IMG/VR virus record: IMGVR_UViG_2877285697_000002
Span: 1 to 5,260 of that record
Length of the DNA: 5,260 nt
Direction: 5' to 3' (one strand)
From: a virus
Lineage: Duplodnaviria > Heunggongvirae > Uroviricota > Caudoviricetes
How positions within the stretch are numbered: position 1 is the stretch's first letter; each line of letters opens with the position of its first letter. A program made the translations under genes and the position numbers. A model generated the notes under the pieces. The model saw only the letters and a program-made list of their open reading frames with translations. It searched no databases and was not told the DNA's origin. This document shows positions 1 through 5,260 of the stretch, piece by piece.

Positions 1-210
1 AACCGTCCTCCGTATCCTGTCATACGCGTAAAACAGCCAGCGCTGACGTGATTTAGCACCGACGTAGCCCCACTGTTCGTCCATTTCAGCGCAGACAATC
101 ACATCACTGCCCGGTTGTATGCGCGAGGTTACCGACTGCGGCCTGAGTTTTTTAAGTGACGTAAAACCGTGTTGAGGCCAACGCCCATAATGCGTGCACT
201 GGCGCGACAT
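1..210 (-). CDS. insB: IS1 InsB (transposase catalytic part), 5' portion only; runs off the window edge. Normally expressed as InsAB' by a -1 frameshift.
   Basis: Minus-strand frame starting at the ATG at 210 translates [64 protein letters not shown]..., matching IS1 InsB. Overlaps the insA 3' end with the A6C slippery motif. Confidence 0.85.
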
Positions 211-404
211 CCGACGCCATTCATGGCCATATCAATGATTTTCTGGTGCGTACCGGGCTGAGAGGCGGTGTAAGTGAACTGTAGTTGCCATGTTTTACGG
301 CAATGAGAGCAGAGATAGCGCTGATGTCCGGCAGTGCTTTTGCCGTTACGCACCACGCCTTCAGTAGCGGAGCAGGAAGGACATCTGATGGAAATGGAAG
401 CCAC
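129..404 (-). CDS. insA: IS1 InsA (transposition regulator, N-terminal part of the InsAB' transposase)
   Basis: 91-aa translation [43 protein letters not shown]... is near-identical to IS1 InsA as I remember it, with a few substitutions (iso-IS1 variant). Includes the zinc-finger-like CPSC...CSHC motif. Confidence 0.92.
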
Positions 405-459
405 GCAAGCACCTTAAAATCACCATCATACACTAAATCAGTAAGTTGGCAGCATTACC

Positions 460-912
460 TGATTCGATATCCTTTTTCCTGGCTTCAAGTTTTTGTTGCA
501 ATGCGCAGATTTCATGAAACCTTTTTGTTATTTCGTGTTCTGCGCTAAACATGCATTTATCTCTGGTCGGAGTAGGGAGCAATATATCTTCGCCGTTGCC
601 GTCTTTCCCATATGAATACCATCCAACCCTTCTGCCAGATACAGTCAGATAAATTGAAGTAGAACGAATATCGCATGAGTAAAATGAACATCCCATCTTT
701 TCAAGTTCTTCACTTATAGCTACCAACTTGGATGATAACTGATCCACTTCCTCAGTTTTCTTCTTCCCGCCAAACGCAACAACTCTGGCGTCAAGTGCAA
801 GCTGGTTCTTTAGCTTTGTTACTTCTTCAAGTTCAGTGAACACCCCGGACTTAATTAAAGCGTTGCGTGCTATTACTTCTTTTATTCTCGTTGTTAAGCG
901 GATTGATGACAT
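460..912 (-). pseudogene. Hypothetical prophage early-left operon protein, apparently interrupted at its 3' end by IS1. The open frame continues 8 codons into the IS1 inverted repeat before stopping at 433.
   Basis: ORF-track frame 433..927; the likely true start is the ATG at 912 (MSSIRLTTRIKEV...), preceded by GAGAGG 6 nt upstream. The reading frame crosses the IS1 boundary at 459/460. No family recognised; the sequence is charged and looks coiled-coil-like. Confidence 0.5.
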
Positions 913-973
913 ATTAATTCCTCTCAAATAAGTGGTTTGCTACCTAATTTCATTTTCTGGCGACCAACACAAG

Positions 974-1357: not shown

Positions 1358-1522
1358 ATAGACCTCCTGATGAACTTTGGTGGTGTGGTAGGTGGGAGAC
1401 CCATTTTGACCTGTTTCGGCCTACTTCAATTCGGCAATAGTCCCGCAGGCCTCGCCGCTTTACGTGCGACATATTCCCGTCCATGAACCCTTCACCACAC
1501 CCCAAAGTTCACTTTGGTTATT

Positions 1523-1537
1523 GCGCTTTGTCAGCGC
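1523..1537 (-). promoter_or_regulatory. nutL boxB RNA hairpin (N-utilisation site)
   Basis: Minus strand reads GCGCTGACAAAGCGC: a 5-bp stem (GCGCU/AGCGC) with loop GACAA, matching P22 boxB as I recall it. Lies about 165 nt upstream of the N start. Not followed by a U-tract, so not a terminator. No convincing boxA found nearby. Confidence 0.6.
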
Positions 1538-1599
1538 CGTAGATTCATATTCGAATCGTTGTATATTCACCGCCCTGGTGAGTAGTGCGTCCTGCTGAT

Positions 1600-1710
1600 G
1601 GCTTAAAGATAATCTAGGTTATAGTGGTGGTCAATAACTTAATTTATGGATTCTGATAAATAAGTTATAAGTGATGGATAATAAAGGTATTTTATTTTTG
1701 TAAATGTTGC
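1600..1710 (-). promoter_or_regulatory. Putative OL/PL early-left promoter and operator region
   Basis: Candidate leftward promoter: -35 TTGACC (complement of 1629-1634), 17-bp spacer, -10 TATCTT (complement of 1606-1611). Shares motifs with the cI-cro intergenic region: GGTTAT-N11-ATAACTT at 1617-1640 versus 4016-4039; GTTATAAGTGATGG at 1664-1677 versus GTTATAAGTAATGG at 4052-4065; ATAATAAAGGT at 1680-1690 versus 4010-4020. Promoter hexamers assigned by eye only. Confidence 0.4.
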
Positions 1711-1813
1711 GGATTGGTCGGTATTGGAAGGGGGGCGCTGTATTGCTGGCGTGTTGGTTCGTGGTTTACCGCATTTGCGGCTGTTAAATATGGGGGACGA
1801 TCGCGAGGCAAAG

Positions 1814-1843
1814 AAAACCCGGCGCGGAAGCCGGGTTTGAGAT
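1814..1843 (-). terminator. Rho-independent terminator, bidirectional in shape and stronger for leftward transcription
   Basis: Stem CCCGGC (1818-1823) / GCCGGG (1830-1835) with a 6-nt loop. On the minus strand it is followed by TTTTCTTTG; on the plus strand by TTTGAGATTT. Confidence 0.5.
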
Positions 1844-1853
1844 TTAGTTATTT

Positions 1854-1988
1854 TCAGCAGCTCGGATAAGAGCGGAAGTGCTGACGAACATGTTCGAGCT
1901 CACCGAAACGTATGCGGCAGTAACTGCGCACATAAACCGGCTTGTCGTGTTCGTAGATGAAGTCATCGCGATTAACATCGTGAGCCAT
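1854..1988 (-). CDS. Possible small protein (44 aa), hypothetical
   Basis: Minus-strand ORF ATG(1988)...TGA(1854-1856) encoding MAHDVNRDDFIYEHDKPVYVRSYCRIRFGELEHVRQHFRSYPSC, with SD AGGAGA 6 nt upstream. Ends about 20 nt before the terminator at 1818-1835. Below the ORF-track size cut-off; no homology recognised. Confidence 0.3.
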   Translation of the reverse strand: MAHDVNRDDFIYEHDKPVYVRSYCRIRFGELEHVRQHFRSYPSC

Positions 1989-2014
1989 AGCTTTTCTCCT
2001 GTTTTTGTATACAG

Positions 2015-2133
2015 CCTGTTTACCCGAACAGGTTGTAGTTTGTTGGGAGAACCGCTATCCTTGGCTTGCGGTTGCCAAGGGTGTAGCGGTAGGTAATCCT
2101 CCATACACTTCGGAAATACTGGATATATTTCCG
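2015..2133 (-). other. Cluster of three stable stem-loops in a non-coding stretch (possible structured RNA or leader)
   Basis: Perfect inverted repeats: CCTGTT-tacccg-AACAGG (2015-2032); CCTTGGC-ttgcggtt-GCCAAGG (2059-2080); CGGAAATA-ctggata-TATTTCCG (2111-2133). None has a clear U-tract. Confidence 0.4.
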
Positions 2134-2136
2134 ACC

Positions 2137-2160
2137 CAAAAAGCCCCGTTCCCTCGGGGC
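2137..2160 (-). terminator. Rho-independent terminator immediately after the stop of the 177-aa gene
   Basis: GCCCCG (2143-2148), loop TTCCCT, CGGGGC (2155-2160). Minus-strand transcript reads GCCCCGagggaaCGGGGCTTTTTGGG. The stop codon of the upstream gene is at 2162-2164. Confidence 0.7.
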
Positions 2161-2161
2161 T

Positions 2162-2695
2162 TTATTCTTTTGTTCCGCCATCAATCATCGCAAAAGATTC
2201 CACAATCAGACTGATACGCTTGGCTTCATCTTTTGTCAGGTCGCGAGGCAGGTTGCCAATGGTGACGATAAGATCTCCGCGCAATGGAATCGGCAGTTCA
2301 AATGTTTTTACACCAACCTGTACGTCAGTTACCGCCTTCTTCTTAGGTGCCATCTTTTTACGCTCCTTTTTTTTATTTACATCACCAACTGACACATTAA
2401 TCTCACCATTCTGGTAGGAGATAAATTTATCAATAGCACTTTGCATCCGGCTTTTGTATGCCTGCAAAGATGATTCAGAGGGTTTGCTTTCTGCTGAGTC
2501 TGCGTACGAACTTGCTAAGTTGGCAACGCTATAATCACGGATATCGGCATCGGTGAAATCCGACCCAAGAACAGTAAGAAGGCGCAGGGAAGAGTCACGG
2601 AGATTGCGGGCTGTAGCATCATTGACGATACCAAGCTCAGGAAGCATCTGTAAGAAGTCCTGAAATGCTTTGATGGTGTAGCTTTTGGTTTGCAT
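2162..2695 (-). CDS. Hypothetical protein, 177 aa, unknown function; accessory (moron-like) gene in the rexAB-equivalent position
   Basis: Uninterrupted ORF with its own terminator. Contains a lysine-rich linker (KKKERKKMAPKKK) between two predicted domains. No family recognised from memory. The start codon at 2695 is immediately preceded by a hairpin and T-tract, with the only SD-like GAGG inside the hairpin arm. An alternative internal start (Met17, near 2647) cannot be excluded. Confidence 0.65.
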   Translation of the reverse strand: MQTKSYTIKAFQDFLQMLPELGIVNDATARNLRDSSLRLLTVLGSDFTDADIRDYSVANLASSYADSAESKPSESSLQAYKSRMQSAIDKFISYQNGEINVSVGDVNKKKERKKMAPKKKAVTDVQVGVKTFELPIPLRGDLIVTIGNLPRDLTKDEAKRISLIVESFAMIDGGTKE

Positions 2696-2884: not shown

Positions 2885-3226
2885 TCATCCGAAGAAGCAG
2901 CAATCCGGGTCAGCACGCACAAGCTCAAGCGCATCAGTCAGCGAAAGTTCAGTACTGTACTGATGCCATTTCATATCCTTCCGCATCCAATAGATTTTCC
3001 ATCTATCCAGAGAACGTATGTACTTGATTCTTGCTGATGGCAGGATGTTTGTTTCACCTGGGTTGCCCTGCCACACGGGGCGCTGTTCGCCGATATCTAT
3101 CGTTTGGTCATTGATGCTATAAACAATATCCAGTTCATTGCGGATATGTTCAGGCGGCCTTATGCTTTCAATGAATTGGTGAACTTCTTTTTTGACCGCT
3201 TGATATTCAAGGTCAGTGAACGCCAT
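2885..3226 (-). CDS. DUF3024-like small protein (113 aa), unknown function; immediately downstream of the repressor gene and probably co-transcribed with it
   Basis: Translation contains ...RPPEHIRNELDIVY...WKIYWMRKDMKWHQY...CCFFG, which resembles the conserved core of DUF3024 family proteins as I recall them (RPP.H.R..L...Y, W.LYWMRRDLKWH.Y, terminal FFG). SD GAGGAGG 4 nt upstream of the ATG at 3226. Only 37 bp from the repressor stop codon. Confidence 0.75.
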   Translation of the reverse strand: MAFTDLEYQAVKKEVHQFIESIRPPEHIRNELDIVYSINDQTIDIGEQRPVWQGNPGETNILPSARIKYIRSLDRWKIYWMRKDMKWHQYSTELSLTDALELVRADPDCCFFG

Positions 3227-4445: not shown

Positions 4446-4745
4446 ATGGAACAAACAAGTTACAGCAAACTATCACAGCGCGATGTTGATCGCGCAGAAA
4501 CAGATTTACTCATCAACCTGTCAACGCTTACCCAGCGCGGTCTGGCAAAGATGATTGGCTGTCATGAATCGAAGATAAGCAGAACGGACTGGAGATTTAT
4601 TGCTTCGGTCTTGTGTGCTTTCGGAATGGCATCAGACATCAGTCCGATTAGCAGGGCTTTTAAGTATGCGCTTGATGGACTCACCAATAAAAAACGCCCG
4701 GTGTGCAAGACCGAGCGTTCTGATCAAATACAAATGGAATTCTGA
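4446..4745 (+). CDS. cII: CII-like transcriptional activator (lambda CII family)
   Basis: C-terminus ...LTNKKRPVCKTERSDQIQMEF closely matches lambda CII ...LTNKKRPAATERSEQIQMEF (from memory). HTH region KMIGCHESKISRTDW aligns with lambda AVGVDKSQISRWKRDW. Position right of cro matches. Confidence 0.88.
   Translation: MEQTSYSKLSQRDVDRAETDLLINLSTLTQRGLAKMIGCHESKISRTDWRFIASVLCAFGMASDISPISRAFKYALDGLTNKKRPVCKTERSDQIQMEF
4455..4468 (-). promoter_or_regulatory. Candidate CII-binding site / PRE -35 region (TTGC-N6-TTGT on the minus strand)
   Basis: Complement of 4455-4468 reads TTGCtgtaacTTGT, one mismatch from the TTGC-N6-TTGC CII recognition repeat. Lies in the 5' end of cII and is oriented leftward, as in lambda PRE. 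Confidence 0.35.
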
Positions 4746-4777
4746 GGTCATTACTGGATCTATCAACAGGAGTAATT

Positions 4778-5260
4778 ATGACATACGAAAATGACAAATT
4801 CCAGGTTCTGAAGAGCATGAAGGTGCCAGATGATTTTAAATCAAATGGCTTTGTTTATGTGCTTTCGAATGAGTGCATGCCAGGAATTTATAAGATTGGG
4901 ATGACTAAGCATTCACCAGAAGTTAGGGCTAAAGAAATTTCAGCCTCTACTGGCGTTCCTAAGCCATTTAAGGTGATAGCAGCCTTTCATTCAAATAATC
5001 CCGCATCAGATGAAAAACTCATTCATAAAGCCTTTGCAAAAGAGAGGCTTAGTGATAATCGAGAGTTTTTCAAGCTTGAAGATAATGATCTTTCTGAATC
5101 TCTAAATGAAATAAGGGCGCTGGTTGGCCCTGAAAGAAATGGCGAGACGGCAGAATACGCAATTTACGACTCATTCATTTCTTTTCGCCATGAAAATGAG
5201 CTTGATCTTAATGAGGAGCTTATAGAGCAAGGTCTGGGTAGTGTAGTTGGTCTGAGGTAG
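4778..5260 (+). CDS. T5orf172 / GIY-YIG-like domain protein (160 aa); putative nuclease-fold accessory protein
   Basis: N-terminal region GFVYVLSNECMPGIYKIGMTKHSPEVRAKEIS...FKVIAAFH...REFFK fits the T5orf172 (MUG113) / GIY-YIG pattern as I recall it (YVL.N...KIG.T...R..E...H..FF). SD AGGAG 6 nt upstream of the ATG at 4778. Stop codon TAG at 5258-5260. Confidence 0.7.
   Translation: MTYENDKFQVLKSMKVPDDFKSNGFVYVLSNECMPGIYKIGMTKHSPEVRAKEISASTGVPKPFKVIAAFHSNNPASDEKLIHKAFAKERLSDNREFFKLEDNDLSESLNEIRALVGPERNGETAEYAIYDSFISFRHENELDLNEELIEQGLGSVVGLR

Follow-up and report, generated by a model that had tools for sequence, protein, structure and literature searches.

A T5orf172 gene cut short by IS600 in a lambdoid prophage remnant, and its intact relatives at the head of the phage replication module

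Proteins with a T5orf172 domain have been described in several settings. Among the candidate homing endonucleases of phages that carry this domain, ~87% also have zinc-finger domains (PMC10448857), and in lytic phages the T5orf172 genes lie at genetic-exchange boundaries (Barth, Dunham & Seed 2023, PMC10448857). Odn (Gp88) of ICP1 is an origin-directed nuclease with catalytic Arg and Glu residues that cuts the PLE origin (PMC8263062). Metal-dependent DNA cleavage has its precedents among other T5orf172 proteins, with the mutants Odn E180A (PMC8263062) and SNIPE E414A (PMC13190303). We analyzed a 5,260-nt stretch of DNA (hereafter the window) that ends in an open reading frame (ORF) with a T5orf172 domain, located directly after cII. 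The explanation that we favor overall, with a probability of about 60%, is that this ORF is the IS600-truncated relic of an optional nuclease gene of the replication module, with a role in homing or competition.

The original prediction had placed a 160-aa T5orf172/GIY-YIG-like gene with a strong Shine-Dalgarno sequence 32 nt after cII, and this was confirmed (Table 1): the cII stop codon occupies 4743-4745, leaving a gap of 32 nt, and the Shine-Dalgarno sequence, AGGAG, ends 5 nt before the ATG. The domain call also held when the search was run. PF10544 (T5orf172) matched residues 24-112 over profile positions 1-100 of 101 with 58.4 bits against a cut-off of 20, and PF13455 (MUG113) scored 60.6 bits against 22.3, the curated gathering cut-off serving as the threshold for Pfam membership. 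The protein is a member of Pfam T5orf172 and belongs to the GIY-YIG superfamily by its fold.

The length of 160 aa had to be abandoned. In relatives the gene is always 645 nt long and encodes 214 aa, and as far as position 5252 the window agrees at or close to 100% with the copies in E. coli prophages and phage Bas106. The 214-aa protein is listed as WP_000220586.1 and, in Bas106, as Bas106_0049. After this position the window reads TGAGGTAG, whereas the relatives all read ATCTTCCTGCGG... and continue for 56 further codons (alignment A1). Because identity with the relatives ends at 5252, where the IS600 terminus starts, residues 1-158 are native, and it is IS600 that supplies Leu159, Arg160 and the stop codon. 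The 160-aa length is an artefact of IS600 insertion into a 214-aa phage gene, and the ORF is a truncated pseudogene. Residues 159-214, missing from the window copy, comprise a long helix (160-182), a hairpin (184-198) and a further helix (200-210). Apart from a few short contigs, our look-up found the exact 160-aa product in two complete chromosomes only, and the whole window is an exact substring of both chromosomes (L005/L006, positions 5224-10483). Past the window both continue with TGAGGTAGCCTGAGTTTAACGGACACTCC..., followed by an HTH_Tnp_1 / IS3-family orfA fragment, and copies matching the IS end carry the PGAP label "IS3-like element IS600 family transposase." We regard this account of the identity and anatomy of the ORF and its locus as very likely correct.

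Table 1. Features of the window (positions in nt; strand relative to the window).
Feature	Position	Strand	Remarks
IS1 copy	1-459		window begins inside IS1; insA 129-404 on the - strand; terminal repeat ends at 459
Nmad5-family gene	433-927	-	truncated by IS1
Accessory gene between cI and N, phrog_2602	2162-2695	-	
Accessory gene between cI and N, DUF3024	2885-3226	-	
cII	4446-4745	+	PF05269, E=1.9e-34; phrog_191; upstream neighbor in the same rightward operon
Terminator-like hairpin and T-run	4691-4721	-	inside the cII 3' end; 12 pairs, 6 of them G-C, then TTTTTTATT
Spacer from cII to the T5orf172 ORF	4746-4777	+	linker ACTGGATCTATCAACAGGAGTAATT; AGGAG at 4768-4772
T5orf172 ORF	4778-5260	+	ATG at 4778; 160 sense codons; TAG at 5258-5260
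Native part of the T5orf172 gene	4778-5252	+	codons 1-158 and first base of codon 159
T5orf172 / GIY-YIG catalytic core	4847-5113	+	residues 24-112
Stump of the family-specific C-terminal domain	5114-5252	+	residues 113-158 kept
IS600 left end, first 8 nt (TGAGGTAG)	5253-5260	+	completes codon 159 (Leu), gives Arg160 and TAG

Besides cII, a cro-like gene, a divergent cI-type repressor gene (HTH_3 + Peptidase_S24) and the gene of the N antiterminator were confirmed upstream, and this set therefore identifies the immunity region of a lambdoid prophage. The order is IS1, the truncated Nmad5-family gene, N, two accessory genes, cI, cro, cII, the truncated T5orf172 gene and IS600. Apart from an ipaH gene (IpaH_Shig, 563 bits; cut-off 550), the complete chromosomes hold only elements of the IS4, IS66 and IS3 families downstream of the window; neither the 3' part of the T5orf172 gene nor an O-like gene or a loader gene was found within 10 kb downstream. 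The locus is a decayed, IS-riddled lambdoid prophage remnant of ~5 kb whose replication, late and structural genes are gone. The replication genes are missing here through IS-associated deletion and not through replacement by the T5orf172 gene. From ipaH and the IS load we infer a chromosome of the Shigella/EIEC type. Most of the C-terminal domain is gone, the fragment lies behind an apparently intact cI repressor and the prophage is dead; the window copy is most likely inert. For the window itself this dead, IS-truncated fragment is of little importance, and annotation should rest on the 214-aa form.

Several other features of the remnant were recorded. The IS600 copy at the truncation is itself interrupted, only a 30-aa orfA fragment being left (L005/L006, 10476-17149). 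Past it come IS66-related sequence, an IS4-family transposase, an IS66 unit, another IS3-family element and a further DDE transposase, and then ipaH; an IS "graveyard" like the one at 10476-17149 is typical of Shigella chromosomes. At the other end of the remnant, the Nmad5-family gene encodes 164 aa in the window versus 207 aa in the E. coli prophage L001, and the last residues of the truncated product (GNAANLLI) are encoded by IS1. The two accessory genes occupy the slot of rexAB in lambda. One encodes a DUF3024 protein with a full-length match to the PADLOC defence candidate PDC-S43 (E=7e-42), the other a 177-aa phrog_2602 protein with no assigned function; together they may form a defence pair of the prophage. 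The ~800 nt that separate N from the phrog_2602 gene (window 1358-2161) hold no long ORF, the gene callers proposing only one of 44 aa (1854-1988, - strand). The segment presumably corresponds to the pL/nutL leader and may include one more small gene.

Intact members of the T5orf172 family, as sampled in a large protein collection, form a compact group of 211-238 aa from Escherichia, Klebsiella, Pectobacterium, Cronobacter, Pantoea and Enterobacter. Existing database labels read "GIY-YIG nuclease family protein" and phrog_8430 "unknown function," NCBIfam has no model that matches the protein, and our literature search found no functional study of this family. The GIY-YIG alpha/beta fold is present, with SLX1 and HIGLE, both structure-specific nucleases, as the best structural neighbors; searching PDB with a profile of the whole family returned no match. 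Across 37 members, down to 33% identity, G24, Y27, Y38, K39, G41, R50, E53, H83, R90 and R95-E96-F97-F98 are invariant. As to catalytic GIY-YIG residues, Y27, Y38, R50 and E96 are among the invariant positions and their spacing is compatible with the GIY-YIG motif; mapping onto the residues of I-TevI by sequence gave no alignment (hhalign probability 0.65%). The Tyr/Tyr/Arg/Glu set together with the fold argues for an active nuclease, as a prediction for the intact protein.

The rest of the protein, a C-terminal domain of ~100 aa, is conserved across the family and cysteine-poor. No zinc finger, NUMOD or helix-turn-helix is recognizable in it, and it matched no known domain. The peptide G-I/V-Y-G-P-x-x-P-x-x-F ends 35 of the 72 distinct members (the tail-bearing ones being L019, L024, L026, L027, L063-L118 and P0031/P0035/P0039/P0040), and the clade of the window lies outside this group. 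A few members end instead in DFDDAPF or SDDSDIPF, which we take to resemble the acidic C-terminal tip of E. coli SSB. The tail peptide suggests docking onto a replisome or repair protein. In one metagenomic protein of 202 aa (P0032), the last ~66 nuclease residues are in frame with an O-like initiator (...DAEVGNRQLEVFYLPKSEPVEQERRV...); a frameshift or a 5' truncation where the two genes overlap probably accounts for it.

To place the gene in its module, prophages with and without it were compared. An O-like/DnaC-like module of ~99% identity also occurs in E. coli prophages that lack the T5orf172 gene (matches from query 677), and the same cII allele, WP_000251073.1, stands before the T5orf172 gene in L004 and before the gene-less module in L010 and L012. 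The indel between cII and the O-like gene that the original prediction proposed to look for is seen when L004 is aligned with L012: 42 nt of the O-like 5' end give way to a cassette of 670 nt, and the flanks are 97.1% (300 nt upstream) and 99.1% (1700 nt downstream) identical. On the left, shared sequence runs through the linker, the Shine-Dalgarno sequence and ATGACA, and on the right it resumes at GAACAGGAGC, at about codon 16 of O (alignment A2). The replaced 42-nt segment of the lambda-type O 5' end is AATACAGCAAAAATACTCAACTTCGGCAGAGGTAACTTTGCC. The cassette contains the nuclease ORF and a new O N-terminus, MSLAEVFYLPKSEPV, in place of the lambda-like MTNTAKILNFGRGNFA. In the E. coli prophages and Bas106, the last 14 nt of the 645-nt gene overlap the O-like start, and a DnaC-like loader gene is next.

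Universal presence with the replication module, which would have made this a core gene, was not observed: the gene was found in only 19 of 5426 complete E. coli genomes, at >=99% identity in each, and CurroJimenez_Bas106 is the only sequenced phage with a full-length copy. Because the same module exists at ~99% identity with and without the gene, sometimes behind the same cII allele, the T5orf172 gene is accessory, an optional element that the replication module can dispense with. A fixed-site presence/absence polymorphism with altered flanking sequence, one mark of homing genes, is thus found here. The idea of an accessory insertion stands insofar as the gene is optional; it fails insofar as the gene is not sporadic in its placement, being position-locked and co-inherited with the initiator.

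The position lock holds over a wide range. In more than 100 loci across Enterobacterales and viral contigs, the T5orf172 gene lies directly 5' of a replication initiator gene, and the stop and start codons of the two usually abut or overlap. Five of five divergent homologues (to ~40% identity; Klebsiella, Pectobacterium, Pantoea, Enterobacter and one further host) sit between cII or its YdaT-type counterpart and the initiator, and a scan of one genome per species added seven further loci, all seven with the same position. In the viral contig scan a long ORF starts between -71 and +12 nt from the nuclease stop in 75 of 80 loci. The adjoining initiators are of several unrelated kinds (22 Phage_rep_O, 6 HTH_36, 2 DnaT-like and 1 DUF1376), and a large "MARSRNIKPGFF" initiator group for which there is no Pfam model also adjoins the gene. 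The second downstream gene encodes a helicase loader or helicase in all 71 scorable viral loci: 44 IstB/DnaC-like, 25 lambda P and 2 DnaB. The evidence points to a widespread, position-locked T5orf172 family and not to a one-off insertion.

When E. coli carriers are compared with each other, identity jumps from ~50% to 100% exactly at the nuclease start codon; across O it remains at ~99%, and in some pairs this level extends over the loader gene as well. In these carriers O and the nuclease gene are conserved to the same degree, and the upstream immunity regions vary. By its alignment pattern the T5orf172 gene is the leftmost gene of the replication block and lies on the immunity/replication mosaic boundary. 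No pair of T5orf172 genes at least 85% identical was found beside unrelated initiators among 83 loci, and over these loci the similarities of nuclease and initiator correlate (Spearman 0.47); the gene is therefore passed on with the module and does not move by itself. Mobility independent of the flanking genes, a second mark of homing genes, was accordingly not seen in this set.

The prediction that the ORF takes the position of O in lambda was borne out. In lambda (L043, 355-386) and in E. coli prophages that have no T5orf172 gene (L010/L011/L012, 2921-2952), the linker seen in the window stands before O; in the Klebsiella, Pantoea and Enterobacter loci it stands before the T5orf172 gene (alignment A5). 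It is the lambda cII-O spacer of ~30 nt, ACTGGATCwATyMACAGGrGTmATTATG, and its conservation across genera does not depend on which of the two, O or the nuclease gene, comes next. Kept regardless of the flanking genes, the linker behaves as a module-boundary recombination sequence.

The original prediction had credited the gene with signals of its own, and this part was not upheld. The Shine-Dalgarno sequence, the ATG and the second codon that the T5orf172 gene uses are those that serve O in lambda, and a scan for consensus sigma-70 sites on the + strand found no promoter-like site between cII and the ORF. At its 3' end the intact gene provides a GGAGG Shine-Dalgarno sequence for O and overlaps the O start. 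A classical moron was considered and rejected on these grounds, namely the lack of a promoter-like site of its own, the use of O's translation signals and the overlap of its stop with the initiator start; the gene is better described as an operon-embedded, optional first cistron of the replication module. In a live phage it would be a delayed-early gene of the pR transcript, its translation going along with that of the initiator, and the protein would therefore be made in lytic growth and not in a repressed lysogen. The strong terminator-like hairpin on the - strand inside the cII 3' end (Table 1) is at what we take to be the position of the lambda oop antisense RNA terminator. The 42 nt that the cassette replaces in carriers presumably hold part of the lambda pO promoter, in which case the cassette might change how oop and cII are regulated.

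What the intact protein does can be approached through these facts. A putative role as a homing-like or competition nuclease is the one we put forward, tentatively and at well below even odds. With its invariant Tyr/Tyr/Arg/Glu set the protein would cut DNA, the C-terminal domain presumably supplying the targeting. Its targets would be co-infecting or co-resident lambdoid genomes without the cassette, cleaved plausibly at the conserved lambda-type O 5' end, for which the cassette substitutes its own sequence; in the ensuing repair the cassette would be copied in, and the adjoining replication module with it. The clean presence/absence polymorphism, the replaced target-gene sequence, the location at an exchange boundary and the rarity of the gene speak for homing. 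Against it stand a C-terminal domain without a recognizable DNA-binding fold and the absence of movement apart from the initiator, which fits long-term residence in the module equally well. The nuclease or homing-type role of the original prediction is compatible with the published T5orf172 proteins (PMC10448857, PMC8263062, PMC13190303) and would apply to the intact family, the window copy being truncated. A bolder version, in which the 214-aa family is a homing nuclease that cuts rival genomes at the lambda-type cII-O junction or O 5' end and so forces exchange of whole replication modules, and its C-terminal domain is a new type for targeting or replisome docking, strikes us as improbable.

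The same position lock can be read without any selfish element. The protein could be an accessory nuclease of replication or recombination, for example a structure-specific or nicking enzyme that acts on intermediates or stalled forks and is recruited to the phage replisome through its C-terminal domain or tail. Regardless of the initiator or loader family, the gene is always the one immediately before the initiator, in most cases with translational coupling, and the two are co-inherited; their overlap is kept at 55% protein identity. Its nearest neighbors in structure, SLX1 and HIGLE, are structure-specific, half of the family carries the GIYGPxxPxxF-COOH tail (35 of 72) and some ends are SSB-tip-like, all of which favors a replication-linked function. 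We nevertheless consider such a non-selfish role rather unlikely. A nuclease without homing that destroys a rival replicon (a phage satellite/PICI, a plasmid or a heterologous phage) or host DNA early in the lytic cycle seems to us unlikely as well. It has precedents in Odn, acting on the PLE origin (PMC8263062), and SNIPE/PD-lambda-1, acting on incoming phage DNA (PMC13190303), and it would suit the sporadic distribution of the gene. The PADLOC models PDC-S57 (6e-29) and PD-Lambda-1 (8.5e-12) do match the nuclease core, but the matches are confined to it (positions 3-93 of 212 and 355-449 of 496, respectively), and the protein has no transmembrane segment, DUF4041 or RepA_N-like domain. Its C-terminal domain shows no relationship to the origin-binding domain that the neighboring O proteins carry (hhalign probability 0.2%, C-terminal profile A4 against O N-terminal profile A8). 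The gene, being part of the pR operon and lacking a separate promoter-like site, would not protect a lysogen, and the strict position lock would stay unexplained.

A non-catalytic DNA-binding or regulatory protein, modulating for example the cII/oop/O region, is very improbable. The cassette replaces sequence that we assume to hold part of the lambda pO promoter, which would suit such a role. It counts against such a role that Tyr, Tyr, Arg and Glu never vary in this family over the range of 33 to 100% identity, whereas domesticated derivatives usually lose these residues. The UniProt and BFVD names, "Bacteriophage T5 Orf172 DNA-binding," which keep the first annotation of the domain, agree with a regulator, as does the precedent of PLE CapR, a domesticated T5orf172-related regulator (PMC10448857).

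The homing or competition role, if correct, would have consequences beyond this locus. The slot of the T5orf172 gene lies exactly on one of the best-known mosaic boundaries in lambdoid genomes, and a nuclease that breaks cassette-less rivals would give a mechanistic cause for recombination at the immunity/replication boundary. It would also extend the idea of nuclease genes at exchange boundaries from lytic vibriophages to temperate coliphages. As a result on the family, we describe a widespread, uncharacterized accessory nuclease in one precise slot of lambda-like phages of Enterobacterales. Bas106 (BASEL collection, a P22-like podovirus) is viable, public and carries the intact gene, and the proposal is directly testable in it.

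Among the known systems, the freestanding GIY-YIG homing endonucleases of T4 (Seg proteins) and I-TevI show no detectable sequence similarity to the family, which is without a NUMOD, zinc-finger or helix-turn-helix DNA-binding region. With SNIPE/PD-lambda-1 (PMC13190303) and PDC-S57 it has in common the nuclease core that their HMMs match. SNIPE, however, has an N-terminal membrane anchor, DUF4041 and a C-terminal nuclease, whereas the proteins described here have 214 aa and an N-terminal nuclease. Membership in SNIPE/PD-lambda-1 was rejected, the match covering the core only and neither DUF4041 nor any further Pfam domain being found, and SNIPE is kept as an analogy. PDC-S57 is closer in layout, with an N-terminal T5orf172 domain in a protein of about 212-245 aa; membership was rejected here too, since the match (E=6.4e-29) is restricted to the core positions given above and the C-terminal halves differ. 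The gene of this family is phage-encoded, belongs to the repressed pR operon and is no host defence-island gene. Odn shares the T5orf172 core with its Arg and Glu and a link to replication modules. Odn owes its targeting to a homologue of the target's own RepA_N origin-binding domain, whereas the C-terminal domain of our family is unlike the N-terminus of the neighboring O, and an Odn-like chimera was rejected on the hhalign comparison above. The ICP1/T5-like putative homing endonucleases (PMC10448857) differ in that most of them bear CapR/DUF723/DUF4397 zinc-finger repeats, whereas this family has its cysteine-poor C-terminal domain of ~100 aa; it also belongs to temperate lambdoid phages, keeps to one fixed slot, is translationally coupled to the initiator and shows no independent movement. 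What the two have in common is a T5orf172 core in a freestanding protein, encoded beside an essential replication gene, with presence/absence polymorphism and a position at the boundary of exchange between related phages.
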